DNA of 32,000 bases from Desulfocapsa sulfexigens DSM 10523. GTDB taxonomy: Bacteria > Desulfobacterota > Desulfobulbia > Desulfobulbales > Desulfocapsaceae. Below, in pieces: positions 6,202 to 28,290 of the stretch. The DNA is taken from contig NC_020304.1 in NCBI RefSeq assembly GCF_000341395.1, positions 1,260,001 to 1,292,000 on the forward strand. Direction: 5' to 3'. Position numbers and translations under genes: made by a program. The notes under the pieces are model-generated. The model was given only the letters and a program-made list of their open reading frames with translations, searched no databases and was not told the origin of the DNA. The first letter of the stretch is position 1; each line of letters begins with the position of its first letter.

Positions 6202-7347
6202 ATGAAAATATTGCAGAAAAAAAATAATATCAGTTTTTACAGAAAACTGAAGACGAGTCTGGCTTTGATGGGGATTATTCCCTTTCTTCTGGCTGTCTAC
6301 CTTTTTACGCGCCGAACAGAATTAAGTAGTACATTGGTGATTTTCAGTGCTGCACTGGTCCTGATCAGCATACTCATGGGATTTACCATGTTGCGAAGGT
6401 CTTCGGATCAAATGCGGGCACTTGCAAGAAAGACTGCAATACTTGATTCCGGTGATATTCTGGAACCAGTCGATGTCAATGTTGAGGGGGAATTGTATGA
6501 TATTGCAGCAAATTTTAACTCGGTGGTTGAAAAGCTTAATCGCACAAACCGTGACATGCAGAGTCGAAGTTTTCAACTCCAGGAGTTTGCCAGTAATTTG
6601 TCTGAATCCTATGAACAGCTTGAAAAAGAGAACAGGTTACGTAATCAACTCTGTCGCTATGTCGGTAAGGATCTTGTCGACAAACTGATGGTGTCGAGAG
6701 ATGGTCAATTGTTAAAGAATGAAAGAAAAGATGTGACGATTCTTTTTGCTGATATTCGGTCATTCACCGCGTTGTCTGAGCACATGGAGCCTGAAGAGGT
6801 TGTTGCCATGCTCAATGAATATTTCTCAATAATGATTGAAATTATATTTAAGTATAACGGGATGCTTGATAAGTTCGTGGGAGATCAGATCATGGCCGTT
6901 TTCGGTCATATCTCCAATGAAAAAGATGGCGCAAGGTCAGCAGTGCGGGCAGCGCTTGATATGCAGAAAGCCACTGCAGCTCTGATGAAAGAACGCGCTG
7001 GAAGGGATCAGCCTGTATTCAAAATAGGTATAGGGATTAATACTGGAAGTGCAATCCTCGCCAGTGTGGGATCAGCAAACAGGAAAGATTATACTGTTAT
7101 TGGGGATACGGTTAACACTGCAGCGCGACTAGAGGCTCACGCTGCTGGCCGAGAGATAGTTCTTGGGGAGCGCACCTGTTATCATCTTCCTAAAAAATTA
7201 CCCCGTAGTGCAAGGCAGGAGTTGAAAATGAGAAATCGCTCGGGAGCTTTGGCCTGTTACACATTAGTTACCAGGGAAAACAAGGTAGTCATAAGACCCA
7301 AAACTGAAAAAAATCCTCTCATGACTTCTGTTCAGGCTGCCTGCTGA
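6202..7347 (+). CDS. Membrane-anchored class III adenylate cyclase (2 TM, HAMP-like linker, CHD)
   Basis: Two N-terminal hydrophobic helices are present. 'VTILFADIRSFTALSE', 'DKFVGDQIMAVFG' and 'YTVIGDTVNTAARLE' are class III cyclase motifs. The Lys (DKF) plus Thr (YTV) specificity pair suggests ATP as substrate. Confidence 0.9.
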   Translation: MKILQKKNNISFYRKLKTSLALMGIIPFLLAVYLFTRRTELSSTLVIFSAALVLISILMGFTMLRRSSDQMRALARKTAILDSGDILEPVDVNVEGELYDIAANFNSVVEKLNRTNRDMQSRSFQLQEFASNLSESYEQLEKENRLRNQLCRYVGKDLVDKLMVSRDGQLLKNERKDVTILFADIRSFTALSEHMEPEEVVAMLNEYFSIMIEIIFKYNGMLDKFVGDQIMAVFGHISNEKDGARSAVRAALDMQKATAALMKERAGRDQPVFKIGIGINTGSAILASVGSANRKDYTVIGDTVNTAARLEAHAAGREIVLGERTCYHLPKKLPRSARQELKMRNRSGALACYTLVTRENKVVIRPKTEKNPLMTSVQAAC

Positions 7348-8120
7348 TTCCCCCCGCTGTTTTTTTCTATGGCTACAAAATTGAGCGTACTGTGTACGGT
7401 CATCAGAGGAAATATCATAGCTATGAAAAACAGGTTTAACACTGGAACCAGGCTGAGAAGTGCAGGAAAGATCCCCAGACGAAGTGATTGATTGTTGTGG
7501 TTTTTGATCCAGGAGATCTTCTGGCCAAGACTCCAGCGTCTACGGGAACTTGGATAGTCTACGAACATCAGAGCTGAGTAGTAGGTGTAGAGCAGCAATA
7601 CAAGGACCTGTCCCACTCCGGGGATGAAGTTAGCTATCAGTGCCGCAATGGTCACCAGTATTCCAAACAGTCCGATTTTAACCCCCTCCCAGAGATCAGT
7701 CAGAAGTCCTGTTATGTTCAGTGCCGCGTCCGGCTCAAAATTTTCGCCAGCATGTTTCTTTTCCGTTGCAGTGGACAGGAAAACATATCCCGGTGCGGAG
7801 AGACTGTAGGCAATAAGAAACGCGAGATAAAAAGCCACAATGCGACTGACGATGATAAAGCTCCAATACATCGCCTGCCAGCCAAGATATTTTGTCCATC
7901 CCCAAAGGCCAACGGCTTCTGGTTGAGCGAGAAAAAAGTTTCCAGTGAGGCCATCCACAAAATCGACGGTAAAAAGGTATCCTGCCCAGGTAAAGACCAT
8001 GGTGAGAATGACAAGAATGGCACTCCACCCCATCAGGCGTTTAGAGCGCAGGAGGAATGACAGGGAATAGGAGAGAGGAATCCATGTGGCTGCTGTTGTA
8101 TTATTTTTCATAGAAAACAT
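7332..8120 (-). CDS. EI24/CysZ-like family integral membrane protein
   Basis: It is a multi-pass membrane protein. 'FIPGVGQVL....YYSALMFVDYPSSRRRWS....LVPVLNL' fits the EI24/CysZ pattern. I placed the start at MFSMKNN (8120) or MKNN (8111), because the longer tracked ORF (to 8375) would run through the radA promoter and 5' end. The 3' end overlaps the cyclase stop by 16 bp. Confidence 0.7.
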   Translation of the reverse strand: MFSMKNNTTAATWIPLSYSLSFLLRSKRLMGWSAILVILTMVFTWAGYLFTVDFVDGLTGNFFLAQPEAVGLWGWTKYLGWQAMYWSFIIVSRIVAFYLAFLIAYSLSAPGYVFLSTATEKKHAGENFEPDAALNITGLLTDLWEGVKIGLFGILVTIAALIANFIPGVGQVLVLLLYTYYSALMFVDYPSSRRRWSLGQKISWIKNHNNQSLRLGIFPALLSLVPVLNLFFIAMIFPLMTVHSTLNFVAIEKNSGGNQQAA

Positions 8121-8229
8121 AATAGGACTTATGATGGCATGAGTAAAGGGGGATCTGTGCTTTTCTATATGGTGCAAGTATGCTAATGTTTTTGCCAGTA
8201 TAAAATCTTCCAGGACATAGAGAGTTGAG

Positions 8230-9594
8230 ATGGCAAAAAAACAGGAAACAGCATTTGTCTGTACCGATTGTGGTGCAGATTTCAGCCGCTGGTTAGGACA
8301 GTGCAGCGTTTGTAAGGAGTGGAACACCGTCAAAGAAGTCCGTTTGGGAAGGAGTCCTGCAGGCAGGCACTCCACCGGTTATAGTGGTAAGCACTCCATG
8401 GTGCAATTACTCTCTGAAGTGGATAGAAGTCGGGCAGAGAGGATTTCAACCGGAATTGCCGAATTTGACCGGGTCCTGGGACAGGGGATTGTGTGCGGAT
8501 CTGTTGTGCTTATCGGCGGGGCGCCGGGGGCTGGCAAGTCAACTCTTCTTCTTCAGGCGCTGGCAAAAGGTTCGGTATCCGGGATTCCGGTACTCTACGT
8601 ATCCGGTGAAGAATCTCCGCAGCAGATTGCCGAACGGGCCGATCGGCTGGAACTTCCAGCTGGCAATATCAAGATGCTGGCTGAGACATCCGTTGAAGAA
8701 ATCTGCAAAGTGATGAATAAAGAAGAGCCCCAGGTGGTTGTGATTGACTCTATCCAGGTCGTGCATTCAATGTCTTCCGAATCGGCCCCGGGGTCAATCT
8801 CCCAGGTGCGGGAATCCGCGGCAATTCTCACCCGTTATGCTAAAGAAACCAACACTTCCATTTTTATGGTCGGCCATGTGACGAAGGATCATTCTCTCGC
8901 AGGCCCCATGACCCTGAGTCACATTGTGGATGCTCAGGTGGTGCTCTCATCCACTGATGATGCCAGGTATCGTATTTTGCGGGCCGACAAAAACCGTTTT
9001 GGCAGTGTGGGGGAACTTGGTTTCTTTGCCATGACCGACAGGGGCTTGAAGGAAGTTAAGAATCCCTCTGCCATGTTTCTGTCACGATCAGGTACTCCGG
9101 CATCCGGTAGTGCGGTAACCGTTGTATGGGAGGGAACCAGACCATTGCTTGTGGAAATTCAGGCCCTGGTTACTGAATGCCAGTCAGGCAATCCAAGACG
9201 TCTGGCAGTGGGGATGGATCAAAACAGGATTGCCATGCTTCTGGCAGTGCTTGCCAAGCATGGGGGGCTCGCCACGGCCAGTGACGAAGTATACGTAAAC
9301 GTGGTGGGGGGAATTCGGGTATACGAGACAAGTTCTGATCTTGCCGCAATGGTGGGCATAGTTTCCAGTTTGCAGGACAGGGTTATTCCTCATGATTCCC
9401 TCTTTTTTGGAGAAATAGGGCTTTCCGGTGAGATTCGACCGGTGGCCAATGGTGAAGCAAGATTGAAAGAGGCTGCCAAACATGGATTTCGTCGGGCGGT
9501 GATCCCCAAGGCCAATGCTCCGCGGCAGCCGGTGAAGAGTCTTGAAATTGTTGCTGTGGGGAGTCTGGTTGAAGCTCTGGAAGCCCTGTACTAG
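8230..9594 (+). CDS. radA: DNA repair protein RadA/Sms
   Basis: Zn-finger 'CTDCGADFSRWLGQCSVCKEW', Walker A 'GAPGAGKST', 'KNRFG' and a Lon-protease-like C-terminal domain are all present. Confidence 0.97.
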   Translation: MAKKQETAFVCTDCGADFSRWLGQCSVCKEWNTVKEVRLGRSPAGRHSTGYSGKHSMVQLLSEVDRSRAERISTGIAEFDRVLGQGIVCGSVVLIGGAPGAGKSTLLLQALAKGSVSGIPVLYVSGEESPQQIAERADRLELPAGNIKMLAETSVEEICKVMNKEEPQVVVIDSIQVVHSMSSESAPGSISQVRESAAILTRYAKETNTSIFMVGHVTKDHSLAGPMTLSHIVDAQVVLSSTDDARYRILRADKNRFGSVGELGFFAMTDRGLKEVKNPSAMFLSRSGTPASGSAVTVVWEGTRPLLVEIQALVTECQSGNPRRLAVGMDQNRIAMLLAVLAKHGGLATASDEVYVNVVGGIRVYETSSDLAAMVGIVSSLQDRVIPHDSLFFGEIGLSGEIRPVANGEARLKEAAKHGFRRAVIPKANAPRQPVKSLEIVAVGSLVEALEALY

Positions 9595-10261: not shown

Positions 10262-13200
10262 ATGAAGATAAATAGTGTCAAAAGTAGAGGGATAGAGGGG
10301 TGGCATCGTTTCCAACTGGAGAATCATATCCTCTACGTGCAGCCGGATATTCCGGACTGGATCGTCGTTTCCGCTGAAGCGGATCGATTGCTCTGTTCTG
10401 AAAAAAGTAATGCCGCAGATTTTTACAGCAGGGATCAGCTCGAGCATGCCTTTGCCATTGAGCCACTGGAGCCTTATCAGGGCAGAGCATCGTTACTCAG
10501 GCTTAAGCAACTTAAAGAGTGCTGGTTTCACGTTACCGATACTTGCAACCTTAGTTGCCGCCACTGCCTTTTTTCTGCTTCGCCCGCAAAAACCAGAACT
10601 CTTGCTCCTGAACTTTTAGAACATGCAGTGCAGCAGGCATTTGATCTTGGCTGTCGCCTCTTCTCGTTCACCGGAGGGGAACCCTTTCTCTACCATGATT
10701 TCCTGCCCTTTCTTCGCAGCTTACTTCTGAAAAATAAAGAAGTGCATGTGGCAGTGCTTACAAACGGTATGCTGCTTGATCGCTATCTGGAAGAACTCGG
10801 AAGTCTTGAAAGGCTCCATATTCAGGTCAGCCTTGATGGTCTGGAAAGCAGTCATGACAGGTTGCGGGGCAGCGGCACTTACCAGAAATTGGTGAAAAAT
10901 CTTGGTTTGATGAAGGAAGCAGGAATACCTGTGACCCTGTCGGTGGCCATCAGCAGGGAAAATATTGAAGATCTGCCCAAATTAGTGGATCTGGCTGCTG
11001 AGTTGGGAGCGGCATCCATCCACCTGCTTTACCATTTTATTCGGGGTAAGGGGAACAGGGAGCAGTTTATCAGTCCTGACACCATTTTTCCCCACCTGTT
11101 AGCTGCTTGGCAGCGAGCAGACGAACTGGGGCTGACCATTGATAACATTGAGACGCTACGTAGTCAGATCTTTTCAACACCCGGTACCAGATATGATCTC
11201 TCCAACACCGCCTGGGAATCTGTGGCCGTGGGGCCGGACGGTAGTATCTATCCCTCTCCAGCACTTGTGGGAATGGAACAAACTGCCTGTGGACATCTGG
11301 ATCAGGGCCTGGAAACAGTGTGGAAAACAAGTCTTGTCCTCAATGAGTTGCGTCAGGCCAGTCTGATTCATTCTTCAGCGTATCTGGCGAATCCCCTGAA
11401 GTTTCTTGTTGGTGGTGGAGATATTGATCACAGTCTGATGTCAGGAAACGAATGGGTGGGGCATGATCCTTATGTACCTCTCTATAACCGTATTGCTCTC
11501 CAGTTGATCGAAGAACAGGCCAACTGTTATAATCACGCGGAAAAGAGTCAAATTCTCCTGCGTATGGGAGATGTCCGTTATGATTGTCCAGATGGTGAGG
11601 AAGAGAGTGCAGAAGTTGCACTTACTCATTGTAACTGTCTTATTTCCCTGGCCTCTGGCGCGGGACACAGTTCTGTGCGTGAATTTTATGGTGCTGCGGC
11701 GCTTGTTGCCAAGGAGGATATCGCCAATCCCCTGGCACCTGCCCAGGCAGAGGCTGATTTTATTTCGGAAAAAACCAAAAAGCACTCCTATGGTTGTGGC
11801 AGTCCGGTTACTGATGGTGCTCCACAGGAAGGGGAAACGCTGGTGGATCTCGGTTCCGGTTCCGGAATAGAGTGCTTTATGGCTTCTGCATCAGTTGGCA
11901 AGACAGGCCTGGTGTACGGCATTGATATGACAGATGAAATGCTAAAACTTGCGGGTGATTCATTACCGGAGGTAGCCGGACGGCTTGGTTATAACAATGT
12001 GGAATTTCGCAAAGGGTTTCTCGAGCAGATTCCGCTGGATGATGGTGTCGCCGATGTGGTTATCTCTAACTGCGTGATAAATCTCAGTCCTGACAAGCGC
12101 ATGACCTATCAGGAGATTTTTCGTATTCTGAAACCCGGTGGACGGCTGGTGGTCTCTGATATCGTCACCGACACTGCCATTCCTGCTACTCTCAAGAACA
12201 ATGTCCGTTATCGTGGTGAGTGCCTCGGTGGTGCCATGCAACAGGAGGAACTGGTCACCATGATGGCAGCTGCAGGTTTTTCTGCTATCCGCTTTATAAA
12301 ACGGTTTCCCTACCGTCGGGTGGAGAATGTGGATTTTTTCTCACTCACCTATGAAGCGATCCGTCCGGTTATTGTTCAGGAGGAGTTGGTTGACGTGGTC
12401 TACAGAGGCCCCTATGGTGCTGTCTACACGGAGTCTGGTGTTGCTCTAGTGAAGGGGCGGCGGACATCTGTTTCACTGCAGGAGGTGGCTTTACTGGATG
12501 ACTCTGTCTTTGTACTTGATAAAGAGGGGGTGGTCACAAATGTAGTAATGGAGAACTCCTGCTGTTCTCCTCAGCGTGAGATTAGTAGTATGGGAAATAG
12601 TTGCTGCGATTCAGAAGGTACACACTGCTGCGACAGTGATGAGAGTTCCCCTGAATTGGAACGAAAAACTGAAGGCTGTATGATCTGTGGCACTGACCTG
12701 CACTATTTTACCGATAGTCGGGAGATGGTCTGCAGCTATTGCGGCCGTCTGTTTGTTGCCAATGGGTGTTGCGAGCAGGGTCATTTTGTCTGTGATGGTT
12801 GCCATGGAGAAAATGGAATCGAAGTGATCAAGGCCATCTGCAGTGGAACAGAGGAGCGTGATCTTATAACCTTACTCGAACTGATTCGCAGCCATCCGGC
12901 AATCCCAATGCATGGGCCGGAGCATCATGCCATGATTCCTGGTATTATCCTTGCCTGTTATCGGAATTCCGGAGGTGATATCAGGGAAGAGGCGATTCTC
13001 ACCGGGATCAGCCGAGGGGCAGATATTCCAGGTGGGGTCTGCGGTTTCTGGGGTGCATGCGGGGCAGCAATTGGTTCAGGAATAGCAGTTTCTACAATAT
13101 TTTCAGCCACACCTCTCACCCCGTCACCACGACAGACAGCACAGGCCTTCAGTGCCAAAATTTTAAAGGTTATTTCGGAATACCGTGGTGGGCGCTGCTG

Positions 13201-13399
13201 TCAAAGGGAGACCTGGCTGGCTCTTTCTGAAACTGCCAGGTTGTCAGCAGAGATGCTCTCCGTTCCCATGGAGGCAAAAGGATCCCTTCGCTGTTCACAG
13301 TATATGAAAAACAAAGAGTGCATCAGAAAGCAGTGTCCTCTGTGGGAAAACCGGGTCAGGGAGTTAGAGCAGGAACTTCAGTTTCTTTCTGTGGAATAG
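10262..13399 (+). CDS. Multi-domain protein: radical-SAM domain, ArsM-like SAM methyltransferase, Cys-Cys linker and Cys-rich C-terminal domain
   Basis: CX3CX2C 'CNLSCRHC' with 'FTGGEPFL' marks the radical-SAM core. 'VREFYG...SYGCGSP...GETLVDLGSGSGIECF...GIDMTDEML...VISNCVINLSPDK...LKPGGRLVVSD...YRGECLGGA' matches the arsenite methyltransferase (ArsM) pattern, including Cys positions. The C-terminus carries 'CMICG..CSYCG..CC..H..CDGCH' and 'GVCGFWGACGAAIGSG'. Confidence 0.85.
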   Translation: MKINSVKSRGIEGWHRFQLENHILYVQPDIPDWIVVSAEADRLLCSEKSNAADFYSRDQLEHAFAIEPLEPYQGRASLLRLKQLKECWFHVTDTCNLSCRHCLFSASPAKTRTLAPELLEHAVQQAFDLGCRLFSFTGGEPFLYHDFLPFLRSLLLKNKEVHVAVLTNGMLLDRYLEELGSLERLHIQVSLDGLESSHDRLRGSGTYQKLVKNLGLMKEAGIPVTLSVAISRENIEDLPKLVDLAAELGAASIHLLYHFIRGKGNREQFISPDTIFPHLLAAWQRADELGLTIDNIETLRSQIFSTPGTRYDLSNTAWESVAVGPDGSIYPSPALVGMEQTACGHLDQGLETVWKTSLVLNELRQASLIHSSAYLANPLKFLVGGGDIDHSLMSGNEWVGHDPYVPLYNRIALQLIEEQANCYNHAEKSQILLRMGDVRYDCPDGEEESAEVALTHCNCLISLASGAGHSSVREFYGAAALVAKEDIANPLAPAQAEADFISEKTKKHSYGCGSPVTDGAPQEGETLVDLGSGSGIECFMASASVGKTGLVYGIDMTDEMLKLAGDSLPEVAGRLGYNNVEFRKGFLEQIPLDDGVADVVISNCVINLSPDKRMTYQEIFRILKPGGRLVVSDIVTDTAIPATLKNNVRYRGECLGGAMQQEELVTMMAAAGFSAIRFIKRFPYRRVENVDFFSLTYEAIRPVIVQEELVDVVYRGPYGAVYTESGVALVKGRRTSVSLQEVALLDDSVFVLDKEGVVTNVVMENSCCSPQREISSMGNSCCDSEGTHCCDSDESSPELERKTEGCMICGTDLHYFTDSREMVCSYCGRLFVANGCCEQGHFVCDGCHGENGIEVIKAICSGTEERDLITLLELIRSHPAIPMHGPEHHAMIPGIILACYRNSGGDIREEAILTGISRGADIPGGVCGFWGACGAAIGSGIAVSTIFSATPLTPSPRQTAQAFSAKILKVISEYRGGRCCQRETWLALSETARLSAEMLSVPMEAKGSLRCSQYMKNKECIRKQCPLWENRVRELEQELQFLSVE

Positions 13400-13581: not shown

Positions 13582-14238
13582 ATGCGAAAAAGTAACAAAA
13601 TAACAAGTATGTGTTTTGCTGCTGCTTTTGTATGTCTGTTTTTTCTTGGAGGATCCGGGGTGAGTCAGGCAACACTAGTAGTTGCCGGTGCAGGCCAGTA
13701 CCCATTGATTGGTACTGGCTCAGGCGGTGGTGATGGGCTTGATGACTTTGATAATGTGAATTGGTTGCTCGATGAGTACTATGAGCGTGACGTTGATGTG
13801 TTCTCCATTGGAAAATTTGAGGAAGAATACATAGGTGATGAACCTCAGGGTAATCTTATACCGGTTGGTTTTACTGCTCCCTGGGATCCTGCATGGTTTA
13901 GCTGGGATGGCAACATATTGGATACTACAGATGGTGTTGGATATATCAATATCCCCAGTGACAGTATTTTTAACTGGACAGGACATTTTTGGTATAGCAT
14001 CAAGGCTGGCAGTGCATTCGGACTCTATGATGGTGGAATATTGACCCTGACAGCTGGTTCGAGTTACAGTATCCCCTGGGATATAAAAAATGTTCCAGCT
14101 GGTTTTACTGGGAACGGCTTGTCCCACTTCAGTCTCTGGGCTGAGGAAGCTTCTCCTGTGCCGGAACCGGCAACGATACTTCTCTTTGGTGCCGGTTTGG
14201 TTGGAATAGCAGGTATACGGCTAAGAAAGACAAAATAA
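13582..14238 (+). CDS. PEP-CTERM sorting-domain secreted protein
   Basis: N-terminal signal peptide. The C-terminus 'PVPEPATILLFGAGLVGIAGIRLRKTK' is a textbook PEP-CTERM anchor. The SD is GAGGGG. Confidence 0.85.
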   Translation: MRKSNKITSMCFAAAFVCLFFLGGSGVSQATLVVAGAGQYPLIGTGSGGGDGLDDFDNVNWLLDEYYERDVDVFSIGKFEEEYIGDEPQGNLIPVGFTAPWDPAWFSWDGNILDTTDGVGYINIPSDSIFNWTGHFWYSIKAGSAFGLYDGGILTLTAGSSYSIPWDIKNVPAGFTGNGLSHFSLWAEEASPVPEPATILLFGAGLVGIAGIRLRKTK

Positions 14239-19620: not shown

Positions 19621-19667
19621 TATGCTGACCTGAGAGCACTTGAATTTTGATCAGAGAGAGACATTCA

Positions 19668-21584
19668 ATGAAACATAACATACATTTTTTGCCCGATGAC
19701 GTCCATGTCACAGTTGAGGACGGTGAAAATCTTCTTAGTGCGGCTGCAGCGGCAGGGGTCTATATACATGCCTATTGTGGTGGTGATGGCGTTTGCGGAA
19801 AGTGTAAAGTTACATTGGAAAATGGTGATGTGGAATCTGATAGTGCTGCTTCCCTCAAAAAGGGGGAGTATGACAAGGGGGTACGTCTGGCTTGCAAGGC
19901 CAGGGTTGTGTCCGATATAACCGTCCGTATTCCTGAGATGGTGAAAGCGGATGGTAAGGCCTTAAAGTGTGCTCCTAAAACCACTCGGGCGATTTCTGCA
20001 CGATCCCTGGATTCGCTTATAGGATCATGGAGTGTGGATCCACCGGTTGGAAAGAAATTTCTAAAAATACCCCCTCCAACTCTCGAGGATAATATTTCAG
20101 ACATGCAGCGTTTGATGCGTGCCCTGAAAAATGCAAACCCGGATAGCCTTGAACCCAGTTATGATCATCCGGAACTTATTCATGAATTGCCACTGGTGCT
20201 CCGTGAGGCCAACTGGGATGTCACCGTTATACTTCTGCATGGCAAGGGACAAAAAGAGCCAGACAGGATTATTGCCGTTGAACCGGGTGATACAACAGAC
20301 CGTCTGTACGGTCTGGCCGTGGATATCGGTACCACTACCTGTGGGGGCGTTTTGATTGATCTCAACAGTGGTGAAATTGTTGCCGAAGGATCAGGTTACA
20401 ATGCGCAGATTGGTTACGGTGAGGATGTCATTTCCCGTATGATCTATTCTCAACGTCCTGGCGGACTTAAGGGGTTGCAGGGTAAAGTCATTCACACCAT
20501 CAATAATATTATTGAAGAGGTGTGTAAAAAGCATATCATCAGCCCCAGTGATATCAGCTATATCATGACGGCTGGAAATACAGTTATGGCCCATTTAATG
20601 CTGGCCATTAATCCAAAATTTTTGCGGGAAGCACCCTACGTCCCAAGCGTCAGTCAGTTTCCATTGACCAAGGCGGCAGGTCTGGGAATCATGGCCCATC
20701 CTTCTGTCAGAATGTTTCTCTATCCCTGTATTTCTTCCTATGTCGGTGGTGATATTGTGGCTGGGGTTCATGCCTGTCAGATGCAGAAAAGTGACGAAAT
20801 ATCACTGTTTATCGATATCGGTACTAACGGTGAAATTGTGGTTGGAAATAAGGACTGGATGGTTTGTGCGGCCTGTTCTGCAGGTCCTGCCTTTGAGGGT
20901 GGTGGCATAAAATTTGGGATGCGGGCCAGTCAGGGGGCCATTGAGAATTTTCAGATCCATCCCGAAACCTATGACCCGATGATTGTAACCATTGGTCAGA
21001 CAAAACCTCGTGGTATCTGTGGCTCCGGTTTGATTTCCATTGTAGCGGAGCTGTTGGATGCGGGAGTTCTTGATCCGCAGGGTAAGTTTAATCGCTCTCT
21101 GAACCATCCTCGAATTCGTGAAGGTGAGGATCGATGGGAATATGTTCTGGCCTGGGACAGAGATTCCATGATAGGTGAGGATATCGTTATTACTGAGGTC
21201 GATCTTGATAACCTGATCCGGGCTAAAGGTGCCATGTATGCGGGTTATCAGACATTACTTGAATCTGTCGGCCTTACCTTCAGTGATCTTGACCGGGTAA
21301 TCCTTGCCGGCAACTTTGGCTCCTACATTGATCTGGAACGGGCAATCAGCATAGGTCTGCTTCCCGATATTGACAGGGATCGCTTTTTCTATATCGGGAA
21401 CGCATCCATGCTTGGGTGCCAGATAAGCCTGACCGACCATAAGCGTTTTCGTGAAAGAGTCGCTGTGCGAACGCTTATGACAAATATGGAGCTCTCTGAA
21501 AATCCTGATTTTATGAATCATTATATGGCTGCTCTCTTTCTTCCCCATACGGACATGAGCCTGTTCCCCTCTGCCAAAAAATAA
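19668..21584 (+). CDS. Corrinoid reductive activase (RACo-type): 2Fe-2S ferredoxin domain plus ASKHA ATPase (DUF4445)
   Basis: The N-terminal plant-type ferredoxin motif 'CGGDGVCGKCKV...ACK' is present. 'GLAVDIGTTT', 'DIGTNGE' and 'CSAGPAFEGGGI' are ASKHA/DUF4445 motifs. I placed the start at MKHNIHF; the tracked start at 19647 is a TTG codon. Confidence 0.85.
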   Translation: MKHNIHFLPDDVHVTVEDGENLLSAAAAAGVYIHAYCGGDGVCGKCKVTLENGDVESDSAASLKKGEYDKGVRLACKARVVSDITVRIPEMVKADGKALKCAPKTTRAISARSLDSLIGSWSVDPPVGKKFLKIPPPTLEDNISDMQRLMRALKNANPDSLEPSYDHPELIHELPLVLREANWDVTVILLHGKGQKEPDRIIAVEPGDTTDRLYGLAVDIGTTTCGGVLIDLNSGEIVAEGSGYNAQIGYGEDVISRMIYSQRPGGLKGLQGKVIHTINNIIEEVCKKHIISPSDISYIMTAGNTVMAHLMLAINPKFLREAPYVPSVSQFPLTKAAGLGIMAHPSVRMFLYPCISSYVGGDIVAGVHACQMQKSDEISLFIDIGTNGEIVVGNKDWMVCAACSAGPAFEGGGIKFGMRASQGAIENFQIHPETYDPMIVTIGQTKPRGICGSGLISIVAELLDAGVLDPQGKFNRSLNHPRIREGEDRWEYVLAWDRDSMIGEDIVITEVDLDNLIRAKGAMYAGYQTLLESVGLTFSDLDRVILAGNFGSYIDLERAISIGLLPDIDRDRFFYIGNASMLGCQISLTDHKRFRERVAVRTLMTNMELSENPDFMNHYMAALFLPHTDMSLFPSAKK

Positions 21585-21741
21585 GGAGCAGGAACTCCCG
21601 CATTGAGAACTGCGTCTTGCAGGGGAACGCGTGGCGCTCAGAATTGACAAAAAACTAAAAAACGTTTAAATTGACGTTTTTATGTGTATTGATAAAAAAT
21701 AATTGAAAAATACAATAATTTAGAGACTTAAGGAGAGTACA

Positions 21742-22638
21742 ATGGGTCAGACAGTTAAAGCAATTGCAGAAAGTATCAATATCATGGGTAAGCGCAGTGG
21801 TGGCGCCATGAAAGATCGTGTTCAGGGCCCAGTTCAGGAGATGGCAAAAGAGGAGACTGCTGCAGGAGCTTCCTATCTTGATCTGAATATCGGACCTGCT
21901 CGTAAAGATGGTACCGAACTTCTTCCATGGGTTGTTAGCACTGTTGAAGCGGTTACTGATGTTCCCCTCTGTCTCGATACCACTAATATGGATGCGATGG
22001 CGGCCGGTTTTAAGGCTGTAAAAAACAAGGAACAGGCTCTGATGAACTCCATTTCTGCTCAGCCCGAGCGTATGGAACAGATGATTCCCGTTGCTGCTGA
22101 GATGAAATGTGACGTTATTGCTCTACTCTGGGGTGCTGATGGCATGCCTCGTGATTCTGCTGAGCGTGCGGCCATGTCCGTTGATTTGATGATGGCATTG
22201 AACGAAGGTGGTATCCCTAACGAGAAGATCCTTTTCGATCCAATCGGAACTCCTATTACTCTTGGTGCTGATCAGATTGCCTCTGGACTCGAGTTTATGG
22301 AAATGCTGGCGGACATTGCTCCCGGTGCTGGATCCACCGTTGGGCTTTCCAATGTTTCCAATGGTGTTGCTGAGCATCTTCGTAAGTACCTGGATCGTAC
22401 CTACCTGATCATGCTGATGAAGTATGGAATTTCCACGGCTATTGTTAACTCCTATGATGCAGAGTTGATGGCAATTTGCAAAGGTGAGCGCCAGGAGCAT
22501 GTGGATATGATCCATGCAATGATGGACGGTGACGATCCGGGTGTTTCACGGCTTTCAGGGGTAGCTCTTGAACATTACAAGACCTACAAAGCACTTTCCG
22601 GACAGACTGTATTCTCTGAATCCTGGCTTGAACTCTAG
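21742..22638 (+). CDS. Pterin-binding (DHPS-like) methyltetrahydrofolate:corrinoid methyltransferase, AcsE/MeTr-like
   Basis: 'GASYLDLNIGPA', 'PLCLDTTN', 'ALMNSIS', 'LFDPIGTPI' and 'GLSNVSNG' match the MeTr/MtrH pterin-binding pattern. The SD AAGGAGAG is strong. Confidence 0.8.
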   Translation: MGQTVKAIAESINIMGKRSGGAMKDRVQGPVQEMAKEETAAGASYLDLNIGPARKDGTELLPWVVSTVEAVTDVPLCLDTTNMDAMAAGFKAVKNKEQALMNSISAQPERMEQMIPVAAEMKCDVIALLWGADGMPRDSAERAAMSVDLMMALNEGGIPNEKILFDPIGTPITLGADQIASGLEFMEMLADIAPGAGSTVGLSNVSNGVAEHLRKYLDRTYLIMLMKYGISTAIVNSYDAELMAICKGERQEHVDMIHAMMDGDDPGVSRLSGVALEHYKTYKALSGQTVFSESWLEL

Positions 22639-24746: not shown

Positions 24747-25003
24747 TTCTATTTTCTTGTGTTGGGAAATTGAAAGATTATTGAATTTTCCAGTCACCTA
24801 TCTGCTTTTCGTTGTTTTTCCTTTCCTACCGATGATTTCCAGCTTGTTTTTGTACTGTTGAATTTCCATGTGTGGCCATTTCTTAAAAAAAGGTTTGAAT
24901 GGATGATAGTGAAATTTTGCAGGAGATTTGGGATTTTGGTACGTTACTGACATTAGAAGTGAGCTGTGGAATGCAATCAATACTGTCTTGAATGGAGGAT
25001 AAA

Positions 25004-25684
25004 ATGGTTAAACAATTTTTGTTGCTTGTATTTGTAATTTTATATGCTTCTGTGATATCCAGCCAGGCTGAAGACAGCGAAGTGATTTCAGGGGAAATTG
25101 TTACTGGATTCCGAGTGCTTACAGTTGACCCTGCCTCAAAAGATAATTATTTCACCGTCTATCGGGGAGATTATATAAAGTTCAGCTATCCGGAGGAATT
25201 CACCTCCCTGGCATTCAGTATGGAGGCGTTGAAGCTTGGAGATATGCTCTCTCCAAAACCGGAGGACTCTCCATTTTTTAAAATGAAGGCCGTGGGGAGC
25301 TACGATTATAGTCTTGGTGAGGGCGGTGGCAGCATCACCGTTGTTGACCTTGTACGTCCTAATTATACTGAGGTTACGGCCGATGAGGCTGCAGATATTT
25401 TAAAAAATCTTAAGCCGTTTATCCTTGATGTACGAACTCCTGAAGAATATCAGCAGGTGCATATTGAGGGAACACATCTGATTCCCATCCAGCAGTTGCA
25501 GGCAAGGATTGGAGAACTGGAACCCAGGAAGCATGAAGATGTTTTTATCTACTGTGCCACCGGAAACAGATCAACCGTTGCCTCGCGAATACTGGCTGAT
25601 CAGGGATTTAAACGGATTTACAATCTGCGTTACGGCGTCTATGACTGGGTACGTAAGGGGCATCCTTACAAAACCGGAAGGTGA
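25004..25684 (+). CDS. Exported rhodanese-domain sulfurtransferase with an unassigned N-terminal beta-rich domain
   Basis: Signal peptide 'FLLLVFVILYASVISSQA'. The C-terminal rhodanese has the active-site loop 'CATGNRS'. I placed the start at MVKQF, 6 nt after GGAGGA. Confidence 0.8.
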   Translation: MVKQFLLLVFVILYASVISSQAEDSEVISGEIVTGFRVLTVDPASKDNYFTVYRGDYIKFSYPEEFTSLAFSMEALKLGDMLSPKPEDSPFFKMKAVGSYDYSLGEGGGSITVVDLVRPNYTEVTADEAADILKNLKPFILDVRTPEEYQQVHIEGTHLIPIQQLQARIGELEPRKHEDVFIYCATGNRSTVASRILADQGFKRIYNLRYGVYDWVRKGHPYKTGR

Positions 25685-25783: not shown

Positions 25784-26605
25784 ATGAAAATAAATACGGA
25801 AGTCATCCAAAAGATTTTTGTTGTTACTTGTGAAGGATCACGACTTGATGCCTCTTTCGCGCAGACTTTTTTTAACGCTATGCAGAGTTTTATTCAGAAA
25901 GGGCATATGGATATCGTGCTCGATCTTTCAAGTGTCGAATTTGTCGATTCCACCGGGCTTGGCGCTATTGTGCAGTGCCTGAAAGAAATTGATGGGCGTG
26001 GACTGCTGGTGCTGTGTGGTGTCAGTGAGATGGTTCTCAGCCTGCTGAAGATGACTCACCTGGATGATATATTTATTCAAGCCGCAGATCGTGACGAAGC
26101 TTTTAAGAAGCTTGGTGCAGAGAAGAAAAAAAGAAGTATTCCTCGTGAGGTGGAAACGGAATTTGTTGCTACTCCTGCCAAGGTAACAGGTTTTGATGAA
26201 GCCCTGCTCGCCTCCTTAACGATGGAAGATGCTGAAACAATTGAGGATGTTAGTGACGAAGAGCGAAGAAAATACCGGCGTCTTATCAGTAAGCAGATAA
26301 CGAATGAAGAAATCATTGTTCATTGCACCAACAGCAGTACCGGGAAACGTTCCACCGGAGTTGTTCTTGATATTTCTCCAGGTGGGCTTCTCCTGGTCTC
26401 GCCTTCAAAACTTTCAGTTGGCGACGAATTTATTCTGGAGGGACGTATTGGAAGAGCATTTAAATTCAAAGAACATACTGTGATCCGTAACTGTCGTGAT
26501 GGAAAATACGGTCTTGAGTTTATTAAGCCGTCCCGCAAAACCACCTCATTTATTCAGCAACTCACTGGTTCTGTGGTGTTGACTAAGAAATGGGCCAGGA
26601 ACTAA
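25784..26605 (+). CDS. STAS (anti-sigma-factor antagonist) domain fused to a C-terminal PilZ domain
   Basis: The STAS part reads 'VLDLSSVEFVDSTGLGAIV' (SpoIIAA/RsbV-type phospho-Ser context, DSTG). The PilZ part has 'RRKYRR' (RRxxxR) and 'DISPGG' (DxSxxG), followed by 'GDEFILEG...KYGLEF'. Confidence 0.85.
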   Translation: MKINTEVIQKIFVVTCEGSRLDASFAQTFFNAMQSFIQKGHMDIVLDLSSVEFVDSTGLGAIVQCLKEIDGRGLLVLCGVSEMVLSLLKMTHLDDIFIQAADRDEAFKKLGAEKKKRSIPREVETEFVATPAKVTGFDEALLASLTMEDAETIEDVSDEERRKYRRLISKQITNEEIIVHCTNSSTGKRSTGVVLDISPGGLLLVSPSKLSVGDEFILEGRIGRAFKFKEHTVIRNCRDGKYGLEFIKPSRKTTSFIQQLTGSVVLTKKWARN

Positions 26606-26641
26606 GTCTTCCATTAATACACGTAACTCCATACTGTTCTG

Positions 26642-27094
26642 ATGTCATCGGTAACGAATGAAATCCCCTCGGGTTCCTCTATAGTCTTCCGCGTTCCAGC
26701 ACGTCTTGCTGATGTTCGTTTGCTTGGTTTTTCAGTTCATGCCCTCTTCCAGAATCTTGGTTTTAATAATATCGAAACCTATCAGCTTGAACTGGCAGTG
26801 ACGGAATCAGCCAATAATATTGTCAAACATGCCTATAAGTTTGCAGAAGATACTTATTTCAACATGAAATTTACCACCACTGATGACAGGGTTATCTGCA
26901 CCTTTGTGGACCATGGAATATTTGAGAATTTTCTGAAAAACAATGGCCAGGGGGAAATTGCCATTAATACCAAAATACTTCCGCCAGATAGTAGAGGAAT
27001 TGCTATTATTTGCGAAGTTATGGATGAGGTAAGTTATCGCAGGTCAGGTGATAAGAATATTTTAAGACTTGTAAAATATTTCTCCCGGTTCTGA
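26642..27094 (+). CDS. RsbW/SpoIIAB-like anti-sigma serine kinase (HATPase_c_2)
   Basis: 'ELAVTESANNIVKHAY' is the N-box and 'VDHG' is G1-like. 'DSRGIAIICEVMDEV' is also present. The size is ~150 aa. Confidence 0.8.
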   Translation: MSSVTNEIPSGSSIVFRVPARLADVRLLGFSVHALFQNLGFNNIETYQLELAVTESANNIVKHAYKFAEDTYFNMKFTTTDDRVICTFVDHGIFENFLKNNGQGEIAINTKILPPDSRGIAIICEVMDEVSYRRSGDKNILRLVKYFSRF

Positions 27095-27099
27095 AGAAA

Positions 27100-28290
27100 A
27101 TGGATCTCATTGAAAAACAGAGTACAGTTCTTGTTGTTGATGACAGTGAGGCCATCCAGACATTATTAAAGGCGTATCTTCGTGACGGTGGATATAATGT
27201 AATGGGTGCAGTTGATGGCGTGGAAGCGCTTGACGTCTGTCTTCGGAATTCGGTTGACCTCATTCTCCTTGATATAGCCATGCCCAAAATGGATGGTTTT
27301 TCTCTGTGTGAAAGACTGCAGAGTGAAAAAAGGTTACGGGCTATCCCCGTCATCATGCTCTCTGCCCGTGAAGATATGGCGTCAAAAATGCGGTCTTTTG
27401 AGCTTGGAGCGGTTGATTACATAACCAAACCAGTTGGCAGGGGTGAGCTGCTGGCTCGTATTCATACGCATCTGGCAATTAGTCGGCTCACTATTTCCCT
27501 TCAGAATGCGAACAGGGAACTGCTTGTTCAGCAGCAGCAATTACTTCAAGGTCTTCATGCCGCCGCAGACCTTCAAAAACACCTTCTTCCCAGGCGTGTT
27601 CCAGATTGTAAGGAATTACGTTTTGCCTCCTACTTTCAACCCTGCCAGGAGGTAGGGGGGGATATTTATAATATTCAGCGACTGGATAGTGACCATCTGG
27701 CTATCTACATCCTCGATGTTTCCGGGCATGGTTTCCCCGCTGCAATGATGACGGCGCTCGCTACTCAGGCACTTAGCGGTTTTGCTGCGATCACCAAAAA
27801 ACAGGGCATGGATGGAAGGGTGGAAAGCGTTACCTCACCGGGAGAGGTGATTCGGGAGCTGAACAAGGAATTTCCAATGGCCCGTTTTAATCGCTATATG
27901 ACAATCGTGTACCTCCTTTTTAATACGAAAAATAGTACCTTCCGATACTGTTGTGCAGGGCACCCCCCGGTTATTCACATGACGCGTGAGGGAGGAATTA
28001 CAGCCCTGGATACAGGTGGGCCTCCTGCTGGAATGGATGGCCACTGGGATGAGGCTGAGGGCTGTTTAAACAGCGGTGACAGGCTTTTCTTCTATACGGA
28101 CGGTTTTACTGAATATAGTAATGAAAAGGGTGAATTGTACGGTACAGAGCGCTTTTTTAACTCCATGATTGGTAGTCGTGAGTTGCCACTTAAGGAGGCG
28201 GCACGGAGTATTATTGGAGAATTGAAACAGTTTGGCGATCAGCTCGATGGGAATGATGATATGACCCTACTGGTTGTGGAGAAAAAATAG
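27100..28290 (+). CDS. Response regulator receiver fused to a PP2C/SpoIIE-type serine phosphatase (RsbU-like)
   Basis: REC motifs: 'VLVVDDSE', 'LILLDIAMPKMDGF' and 'VDYITKP'. PP2C motifs: 'VGGDIYN', 'ILDVSGHGFPAAMMTA', 'FFYTDGFTE' and 'NDDMTLLVV'. Confidence 0.9.
   Translation: MDLIEKQSTVLVVDDSEAIQTLLKAYLRDGGYNVMGAVDGVEALDVCLRNSVDLILLDIAMPKMDGFSLCERLQSEKRLRAIPVIMLSAREDMASKMRSFELGAVDYITKPVGRGELLARIHTHLAISRLTISLQNANRELLVQQQQLLQGLHAAADLQKHLLPRRVPDCKELRFASYFQPCQEVGGDIYNIQRLDSDHLAIYILDVSGHGFPAAMMTALATQALSGFAAITKKQGMDGRVESVTSPGEVIRELNKEFPMARFNRYMTIVYLLFNTKNSTFRYCCAGHPPVIHMTREGGITALDTGGPPAGMDGHWDEAEGCLNSGDRLFFYTDGFTEYSNEKGELYGTERFFNSMIGSRELPLKEAARSIIGELKQFGDQLDGNDDMTLLVVEKK

Follow-up and report, generated by a model that had tools for sequence, protein, structure and literature searches.

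What does a cell make with an enzyme of the radical S-adenosylmethionine (SAM) type and an arsenite methyltransferase-like enzyme joined in one polypeptide? This question is raised by a gene of Desulfocapsa sulfexigens DSM 10523, which lies at 10262-13399 in the 32,000-nucleotide (nt) stretch of contig NC_020304.1 analysed here (positions 1,260,001 to 1,292,000; hereafter the window) and encodes a protein of 1045 amino acids (aa), in which a radical-SAM module, an ArsM-like methyltransferase and a Zn-ribbon/DUF5714 module follow one another. To our knowledge, ArsS and ArsL are the only radical-SAM enzymes that build carbon-arsenic (C-As) bonds, each with a separate ArsM. ArsS adenosylates dimethylarsenite (DMAs(III)) to 5'-deoxy-5'-dimethylarsinoyl-adenosine (DDMAA) (PMC13598754). 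In arsinothricin synthesis by Burkholderia gladioli, ArsL binds As(III) through a Cys motif at its C-terminal end and forms the C-As bond on this Cys-held trivalent arsenic, while ArsM methylates (PMC13598754). We argue from sequence comparisons that the fusion may be a self-contained organoarsenical synthase performing the jobs of both ArsS and ArsM, a proposal whose chances we regard as evenly balanced.

The open reading frame (ORF) and its three-part architecture had been proposed in a first-pass annotation of the window. The ORF list returned exactly the same frame, all motifs quoted in that annotation were found in the translation, and Pfam gave Radical_SAM (aa 91-245, E 2.4e-27), Methyltransf_31 (523-672, E 1.9e-28) and DUF5714 (856-1028, E 1.3e-60). 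More than 120 protein clusters cover the fusion over its full length at 54-97% identity, so the ORF is not a chance product. These homologues come mostly from Desulfocapsa and other Desulfobulbales and are labelled in the source databases merely 'methyltransferase domain-containing protein' or 'DUF5714 domain-containing protein'. The AlphaFold2 (AF2) model of the full-length protein has a mean predicted local distance difference test score (pLDDT) of 86.2 and a predicted template modelling score (pTM) of 0.73. No curated NCBIfam model attains its cutoff on the fusion, and no paper on this fusion or on DUF5714 was found in a full-text literature search.

By sequence and fold the middle domain is a methyltransferase of ArsM type; its SAM site is intact, and it has the Cys triad to which As(III) is bound in solved ArsM structures. 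Pfam matches to Methyltransf_31/11/25 place it in the class I SAM-methyltransferase fold, and the family shows no variation at the SAM-site columns D529, G531, G533, G535 and D555. The segment grouped with ArsM, and not with generic UbiE/COQ5 enzymes, by curated profiles, PDB sequences and fold. The seven best methyltransferase models of NCBIfam were all ArsM-type; a PDB sequence search (matches including 5evj, 4fr0 and 8xt7) placed five arsenite methyltransferases on top, CrArsM, CmArsM and human AS3MT among them, at E 6e-30 to 6e-33, the next methyltransferase following at 5e-9; and the 13 best Foldseek matches of the full AF2 model were ArsM/AS3MT structures (including 6cx6, 5evj, 4fr0 and 8xt7, E~1e-18), in alignments of 283-312 columns that also cover the C-terminal domain, 6cx6 being a complex with As(III) and S-adenosylhomocysteine. 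With CmArsM, CrArsM and human AS3MT the fusion has in common the fold, the SAM motif, three Cys and the C-terminal domain, at 27-29% identity over ~280-310 columns, but in the fusion this domain has a further module on either side. The three Cys are those to which the first-pass annotation had pointed, and they align residue for residue with crystallised ArsM enzymes: YGC512GSP, SNC604VINL and GEC654LGGA are in register with YGCGS, SNCVxNL and GECLGGA of 5evj and 4kw7/4fr0. All three are invariant in alignments of 103 and of 237 family members, and we take C72, C174 and C224, the As(III)-binding cysteines of CmArsM, to be their counterparts.

The N-terminal module of about 460 residues is, by its motifs, a radical-SAM enzyme whose [4Fe-4S]/SAM site is intact. 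The motif 'CNLSCRHC' supplies C95, C99 and C102, and 'FTGGEPFL' the GGEP SAM-binding motif, both of which are invariant in the alignments of 103 and 237 relatives; G138, G139, E140, P141, N168, S190, D192 and R202 are likewise invariant core columns of the family alignment. As modelled, the first 450 residues adopt a maturase-type fold of RRE (RiPP recognition element, RiPP standing for ribosomally synthesised and post-translationally modified peptide), radical-SAM core and SPASM/twitch extension, the same architecture as in the SPASM/twitch maturases CteB, anSME, SkfB and SuiB. Foldseek matched them to CteB, SuiB, SkfB, anSME and ChlB at target-normalised template modelling (TM) scores of 0.53-0.76 (0.61-0.76 for the four maturases just named; CteB, TM 0.68-0.71 over 450-460 columns; anSME, 0.73-0.76 over about 370-375 columns), and the best PDB sequence match of the module is SkfB (E 1.3e-15). 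The small domain at the very start comprises, in the AF2 model, strands E15-18, E23-27 and E32-36 and helices H38-45 and H51-63. The StsB maturase profile of NCBIfam aligns to the fusion from residue 15 on, and precomputed PqqD (PF05402) matches exist for the distant relatives P0200, P0203 and P0205; the fusion's own first 90 aa gave no Pfam match.

The SPASM-like part has lost the usual Cys, as had been noticed in the first reading of the sequence. It gave no Pfam SPASM match in the fusion and holds a single Cys, C343, where a SPASM domain has seven and a twitch domain a partial motif, while an invariant 'GGGDIDH' (G384, G385, D387, H390) is kept. The count in the SPASM-aligned region is 1-3 in 155/155 three-domain members, and 5-9 Cys are kept in 31/82 two-domain relatives (e.g. 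'CWESLC...KCNDCHLKFICGGGD'), some of which have a precomputed Pfam SPASM match. The kinship to ArsS and ArsL that the first-pass annotation had expected was not found. Pairwise identity with the annotated ArsS of a Burkholderia glumae plasmid is 27% and limited to 134 core residues; DUF3641, at 177 bits in that ArsS, has no Pfam match in the fusion; and neither the ArsS nor the ArsL model is among its 25 best NCBIfam matches, the best radical-SAM ones being StsB, ScmF, the mycofactocin maturase, PapB, AhbD and MoaA, all far under cutoff. In place of the Cys/Sec-rich C-terminal DUF3641 of ArsS (TIGR04167, a radical-SAM (seleno)protein), the fusion shows an RRE-like start together with a SPASM-shaped extension, and ArsL (NF040542) belongs to a different radical-SAM branch, whose C-terminal arsenic-binding motif RCCLKC does not occur in the fusion translation and whose arsQML-type operon is missing here. 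The rule set in the first-pass annotation, that the proposal fails if the radical-SAM part is unrelated to ArsS/ArsL, we judge too strict, since the gene context described below suggests non-homologous recruitment.

The distribution of the fusion was examined in a scan of one genome per species. The three-domain gene was found in Desulfocapsa, Desulfobulbaceae, Desulfurivibrionaceae and Hydrosulfovibrio, and two-domain rSAM-ArsM proteins (radical-SAM followed by ArsM) with 31-39% identity in the anammox genus Scalindua and relatives, Thermodesulfovibrionia, Thermoanaerobaculia, Vicinamibacterales, Gemmatimonadota and one archaeon, the two-domain hosts including Acidobacteriota. Protein searches added fusion forms from Elusimicrobiota, Armatimonadota and Campylobacterales. 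The hosts are anaerobes of sulfidic, arsenic-mobilising habitats. An exhaustive search with the radical-SAM part as sole query gave 114 representatives at E <=1e-30, most of which have the ArsM domain fused to them; the best 150 representatives listed comprise 22 three-domain proteins, 26 rSAM-ArsM proteins and 3 of permuted ArsM-rSAM order, the remainder being mostly fragments or generic enzymes. In the permuted proteins (P0411, P0416 and P0429) the ArsM-like part comes first and the rSAM/SPASM part, with the full set of SPASM Cys, second; the ArsM-type Cys are kept, with 'SC(I)GG' replacing 'GEC' around the third. In the permuted form the two activities have been joined independently, and the occurrence of both orders argues strongly that radical-SAM and ArsM activities act together. 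The 'Rosetta stone' idea of the first-pass annotation is thus borne out in many phyla and in both domain orders.

The permuted proteins also help to place a short conserved segment at the module boundary. Like ArsL, the radical-SAM module of the fusion ends in a conserved Cys-bearing tail, 'HxNC', of which C459 is conserved at 1.00/1.00, H456 at 1.00/0.99 and C442 at 1.00/0.83 in three-/two-domain members. Since 'HCNC' stands 7 residues before the C-terminus in P0411, and the last residues are 'HCA' in P0416 and 'NCA' in P0429, H456-x-N-C459 belongs to the radical-SAM tail and not to the ArsM part. We infer in this tail a candidate thiolate site, from which a trivalent arsenical could be presented to the active site of the radical-SAM module.

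Five further proteins that resemble stand-alone radical-SAM or rSAM-DUF5714 variants (P0126, P0154, P0166, P0168 and P0173) look frameshifted or internally deleted, come from single assemblies and were not used. A protein 84% identical to the fusion (P0003) is labelled Methanococcoides sp. SA1, and two short contigs with fusion copies of 59-61% identity (L040 and L041) are binned as Paludibacter sp.; these look mis-binned or contaminant, as the distribution is otherwise that of Desulfobulbales.

The canonical ArsS cassette of B. glumae plasmid NZ_CP100267.1 comprises arsS, thioredoxin, CcdA, an extracytoplasmic function (ECF) sigma factor, zf-HC2, a major facilitator superfamily transporter, methylthioadenosine (MTA) phosphorylase, TIGR04283, TIGR04282, a flavin adenine dinucleotide (FAD) oxidoreductase, a 'bifunctional TVP38/TMEM64 family protein/FAD-dependent oxidoreductase', DUF547 and a second radical-SAM gene. 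About 15-20 related fusion loci from several phyla carry accessory genes of this type, and the window and its closest relatives carry none; those common to both systems are TIGR04282, TIGR04283, TVP38/FAD oxidoreductase, DUF547, MTA phosphorylase, thioredoxin/CcdA and ECF sigma/zf-HC2 (Table 1). TIGR04282 and TIGR04283 score over their curated cutoffs wherever NCBIfam was scanned. One of the TIGR04282 loci, L018, carries the three-domain gene of a D. sulfexigens metagenome-assembled genome, and in another, L095, the fused TIGR04282/TIGR04283 gene overlaps the start of the rSAM-ArsM fusion. Among the loci with a VTT protein or FAD oxidoreductase are those of the three-domain fusions in Hydrosulfovibrio ferrireducens and Desulfurivibrio dismutans, one anammox and one Elusimicrobiota locus, and a split fusion. 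No separate ArsS gene was present in the partner-bearing loci, the sole ArsS-like matches being the fusion's own radical-SAM core. Relatives of the fusion take the place of ArsS within the gene set that normally accompanies it. The earlier suggestion of a dedicated organo-metalloid enzyme, and not a detoxification gene, gains independent support from this, as the accessory genes of the ArsS cassette adjoin the fusion relatives. Like the fusion, the ArsS system pairs a radical-SAM enzyme with an ArsM-type methyltransferase, but as separate proteins, whereas in the fusion the two are covalently joined, with the Zn-ribbon/DUF5714 module added in Desulfobulbales members. ORF clustering of 80 loci, for which ORFs >=80 aa were listed, gave no neighbour conserved across all clades, only clade-specific ones.

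Some of these clade-specific neighbours deserve mention on their own. A 494-aa B12-binding radical-SAM gene lies ~30 nt downstream of the two-domain fusion in 12/12 Thermodesulfovibrionia/Nitrospirae loci (L068-L080, e.g. L074:10289-11773), often with a divergent sigma-54 activator upstream; the best NCBIfam matches of the B12-binding protein are BchE/HpnJ, with P-methyltransferases and ArsL weaker, and it could act on the same substrate in a further radical step. PiT/PHO4 phosphate-type transporters adjoin the fusion in Scalindua (L049-L067, e.g. L056:2059-7999), in the Thermodesulfovibrionia loci L072 and L074 and in the SPASM-type locus L094 (3585-4766), with PhoU_div in L074, and the Scalindua loci have an AhpD-like protein, a 505-aa membrane GT2 protein and DUF3179 upstream. 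Together, these transporters and the Scalindua neighbours may indicate a link to arsenate uptake or to lipids or glycans.

The C-terminal region had been described in the first-pass annotation as a Cys/His-rich, Zn-ribbon-like domain. Both Cys/His sets of the ribbon region, the second with the pattern CxxxHxxCxxCH, are invariant in three-domain members and in stand-alone DUF5714 proteins, and what follows is DUF5714 (PF18978) by Pfam, with 204.4 bits against a cutoff of 26.2 over the full profile (1-173). The AF2 model of this module alone, built with 94 homologues, reached a pLDDT of 93.4 and a pTM of 0.90. It forms the hairpin from strands E19-29 and E36-43 (numbering of the C-terminal model), and some family members have weak Zn-ribbon Pfam matches; in the helical bundle the invariant ligands are H884, H888, H889, C927, C933, C979, C980, C1011, C1020 and C1025. 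Foldseek of the module against PDB returned no relative (best E 1.2, TM <=0.21 by query and <=0.27 by target), and no significant match came from a profile search of the PDB sequences. Positions 4-270 of the 468 of MbdU (NF045648, 'metal-binding double selenoprotein') align to fusion residues 763-1032 at 137-141 bits, missing the cutoff of 600, and C_GCAxxG_C_C has weak matches in 25/94 family members and misses its cutoff for the fusion. The fusion is thus a clear DUF5714 member, but lies under the cutoff for the N-terminal half of MbdU and for C_GCAxxG_C_C, and none of the three families has a solved structure. In the disordered linker that precedes the module, C767/C768 are conserved at 1.00 in three-domain members, against 0.80/0.63 in two-domain members, and similar CC-rich tails terminate two-domain relatives.

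Used as sole query, the Zn-ribbon/DUF5714 module gave 1579 matches, many of them stand-alone proteins of ~260 aa. Among the contexts examined, the neighbours of the stand-alone genes were heterogeneous, some lying near methyltransferases, a flavoprotein or unrelated genes. Two lie directly 3' of radical-SAM-type genes, L081 and L083 (split fusion), and another, in L088/L089, follows a BATS-domain gene without a clear CX3CX2C motif; no separate DUF5714 gene was found within 8 kb of the two-domain fusions. In L081 (4719-6795) the radical-SAM gene, a 429-aa 'Zn_ribbon_HMPTM + Radical_SAM' gene from the MJ0619-like family, overlaps at its end with the DUF5714 gene. Some fusion proteins and some DUF5714 proteins carry the JGI label '7,8-dihydro-6-hydroxymethylpterin dimethyltransferase', which is doubtful because MJ0619 has since been reassigned as tetraether lipid synthase.

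Table 1. Features of the fusion gene, its upstream neighbour and the ArsS-type genes found in related fusion loci
Feature	Residues	Position in window (nt) or loci	Strand	Basis
Whole gene, radical-SAM/ArsM-like/Zn-ribbon-DUF5714 fusion	1045 aa	10262..13399	+	ATG start; ORF list, Pfam, homologues, AF2
N-terminal domain of 3 strands and 2 helices, shortened RRE/PqqD-like, conserved 'PDW' motif	11-65	10292..10456	+	AF2 secondary structure, profiles
Radical-SAM core; CX3CX2C C95/C99/C102 (nt 10544-10567); GGEP aa 138-141	84-262	10511..11047	+	Pfam PF04055, invariant columns
SPASM/twitch-shaped extension without auxiliary-cluster Cys	263-450	11048..11611	+	Foldseek, Cys counts
Tail of radical-SAM module; C442, H456, N458, C459 ('THCNC')	442-459	11585..11638	+	Conservation, permuted relatives
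ArsM-type SAM methyltransferase; SAM motif 'VDLGSGSG'	470-705	11669..12376	+	PDB alignments, NCBIfam, Foldseek, invariant columns
Candidate As(III)-binding Cys	C512, C604, C654	11795-11797, 12071-12073, 12221-12223	+	Alignment to ArsM structures
ArsM C-terminal beta domain	706-766	12377..12559	+	NF040538 profile to its end (356/356); strands 709-752; Foldseek
Disordered linker with vicinal Cys (CC...CC...CC)	767-798	12560..12655	+	pLDDT <50 for 768-798
Zn-ribbon beta-hairpin, then second Cys/His set	C806/C809/C824/C827, then C837/H841/C844/C847/H848	12668..12805	+	Invariant ligands, C-terminal model
DUF5714 helical bundle; 'GVCGFWGACGAA' motif	856-1028	12827..13345	+	Pfam PF18978, AF2
Multi-pass membrane protein	201 aa	9649..10254	+	Ends 7 nt upstream of fusion; weak UPF0259/YciC-like matches only
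TIGR04282		7 fusion loci: L018, L050, L061, L064, L086, L094, L095
TIGR04283		5 of the 7 TIGR04282 loci; fused to TIGR04282 in L064 and L095
VTT protein and/or FAD oxidoreductase		about 10 fusion loci
DUF547		5 fusion loci
MTA phosphorylase		L077
Thioredoxin + DsbD_TM		L094
ECF sigma + zf-HC2		L059; L049		Pfam (L059); ORF clustering only (L049)

If the fusion is indeed an organoarsenical synthase, As(III) would be bound on C512, C604 and C654 and methylated by use of SAM, giving a trivalent product such as DMAs(III). The methylated arsenical would then be passed to the radical-SAM module, with C459 (together with C442) or the CC-rich linker as the possible carrier. Reductive cleavage of a second SAM would generate a carbon radical, most simply the 5'-deoxyadenosyl radical as in ArsS, and addition of this radical to arsenic would form the C-As bond of a DDMAA-like product, which, in the relatives, MTA phosphorylase and the TIGR04282/TIGR04283 transferases might process onward. 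The Zn-ribbon/DUF5714 module would be a metal-binding accessory. Our guess is that it acts either in metalloid handling or as a redox or cluster-bearing partner in place of the lost SPASM clusters; the absence of SPASM Cys from 155/155 DUF5714-bearing members suggests that DUF5714 may supply a substitute metal or redox site.

Several observations weigh against this proposal. The ArsM models stay under their curated cutoffs (PRK11873, 219.2 vs 263; NF040538, the arsinothricin ArsM, 173 vs 500; NF038099, 110 vs 400 bits), and the fusion, unlike CmArsM, lacks the fourth, N-terminal ArsM Cys (C44 of CmArsM), with no Cys in 477-509. This Cys, which four-Cys enzymes need for the first methylation of As(III), is lost in 152/155 three-domain members and present as 'LCCP' in 43/82 two-domain relatives. 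By sequence the radical-SAM module stands outside the ArsS and ArsL clades, with no homology to them beyond the common core, and its closest structural relatives by Foldseek are peptide modifiers. Most of the ~95 fusion loci have no partner gene within 8 kb; the window and its 13 closest relatives have neither partner genes nor ars genes and show housekeeping neighbours; and the 'arsenosugar' names of TIGR04282 and TIGR04283 are computational, being derived from gene association. The role given to DUF5714 is a guess, and the neighbours of its stand-alone copies vary. Finally, the same Cys chemistry could serve Sb, Se or Te.

This last point amounts to an alternative in which architecture and logic are the same and the substrate is Se, Sb or Te, yielding an organoselenium or organoantimony product. 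ArsM enzymes are able to methylate Se and Te, selenite uptake has been connected with DedA proteins, and the partners of the fusion include a VTT/DedA-family membrane protein and disulfide-reductase-like flavoproteins; NCBIfam, moreover, holds several ArsM-like fusion selenoproteins, and the DUF5714 half matches the MbdU model. We nevertheless consider it unlikely, as the Cys triad and fold match arsenic-bound ArsM structures, PiT-type phosphate/arsenate carriers adjoin the fusion in Scalindua, Thermodesulfovibrionia and L094, and the partner genes are those of the ArsS system, whose radical-SAM enzyme acts on DMAs(III) (PMC13598754). The nature of the N-terminal module suggests another explanation, namely a peptide or protein maturase in which the RRE/rSAM/SPASM-type module cross-links or modifies its substrate, the methyltransferase methylates, and the ArsM-like Cys serve another purpose. 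The nearest solved structures of that module are indeed RiPP or protein maturases (SkfB, CteB, SuiB, anSME, ChlB), its best NCBIfam matches are StsB, ScmF, mycofactocin and PapB, and distant members keep PqqD/RRE and SPASM signatures. But those NCBIfam matches are all far under cutoff, the fusion's clade lacks the SPASM Cys and part of the RRE, and the As-binding triad is invariant family-wide. Unlike the maturases, the fusion clade has an ArsM fused and no evident peptide substrate gene; ORF clustering gave no cross-clade neighbour among ORFs of at least 80 aa, short precursor peptides not having been searched for, and the recurring neighbours are genes of the ArsS cassette. On this evidence we rate the maturase explanation as improbable.

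A further alternative is an ordinary detoxifying arsenic methyltransferase for anoxic life, in which the ArsM domain alone acts on arsenic: the radical-SAM and DUF5714 parts would be redox helpers, re-reducing disulfides or supplying electrons, and no C-As bond would be formed. The ArsM domain does appear complete and is predicted to be active, disulfide-reductase-like and thioredoxin-like proteins are neighbours in relatives, and the anaerobic hosts live in sulfidic, arsenic-mobilising habitats. This account has little probability in our view, since the SAM-cleaving motifs, which a mere electron carrier would not need, are invariant, and biosynthetic transferases belonging to the ArsS system, not resistance genes, are found alongside. 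None of arsR, acr3, arsB and arsC is present in the window, and none was seen among the annotated neighbours at the fusion loci, where no dedicated search was made.

Within the window, the gene order is adenylate cyclase, CysZ/EI24-like protein, RadA, the 201-aa membrane protein, the fusion, a PEP-CTERM protein, RNase H, DUF533, AIM24, RsmE, PrmA, RACo and a pterin-binding methyltransferase. There is no ars gene anywhere in its 32 kb, in line with the first-pass remark that no arsR, arsB/acr3 or arsC lies nearby. The membrane protein gene, which had been thought to belong with the fusion, is probably co-transcribed with it, but was rejected as a functional partner: it is kept in just the 13 closest loci, alongside the same housekeeping block of RadA, the CysZ-like gene and the cyclase, and this joint retention is plain synteny, with no sign of a functional link. 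The window had no Rfam match, either to a riboswitch or to another RNA family, and promoter and terminator scans around the gene gave nothing over shuffled background. An AT-rich spacer of 182 nt separates the fusion from the next gene downstream, which encodes a 218-aa PEP-CTERM-anchored protein (13582-14238) and is kept in the nearest relatives only. At 19647-22638, according to the annotation of the 97% identical locus L084, lies a reductive corrinoid-protein activator of the RACo type (Fer2, RACo_linker, RACo_C_ter) followed by the pterin-binding methyltransferase. A partner-switching-like module of STAS-PilZ protein, HATPase_c_2 anti-sigma-type kinase and response-regulator/SpoIIE phosphatase occupies 25784-28290, with a rhodanese-domain protein (24992-25684) just 5' of it. 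Between the longest ORF of the CysZ/EI24-like gene (7332-8375, minus strand, 347 aa, GTG start) and the beginning of radA (8230-9594, plus strand) there is an overlap of 146 nt; the true start of the CysZ/EI24-like gene is probably further in, since the near-identical L084 gene is called at 262 aa.

Thus, what is known in this field is the cooperation of radical-SAM enzymes with ArsM, and what is new here is an unrelated radical-SAM lineage, its covalent fusion to ArsM and, in Desulfobulbales, an added domain without a solved structural relative. It is tenable, though on the doubtful side of an even chance, that this represents a third independent C-As-forming radical-SAM lineage after ArsS and ArsL, in which a peptide-maturase-type SPASM enzyme joined ArsM, a metal-binding domain was gained in Desulfobulbales, and organoarsenicals are made in anaerobes. 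The products would be arsenosugar or arsenolipid precursors or some other compound, and the producers sulfur-disproportionating, anammox and other anaerobes. If this is true, C-As chemistry would have arisen again, from a peptide-maturase scaffold, and in a single polypeptide where arsenic must travel from the methyltransferase site to the radical site. DUF5714, a widespread domain with no solved structure, gains a first functional context from the present analysis. Desulfocapsa-type sulfur disproportionators, the marine anammox Scalindua and Thermodesulfovibrionia would, if the fusion does form C-As bonds, produce complex organoarsenicals, and a microbial source of such compounds in oxygen-free sediments and waters would be identified, which would bear on the speciation and mobility of arsenic in sediments, groundwater and oxygen-minimum zones.

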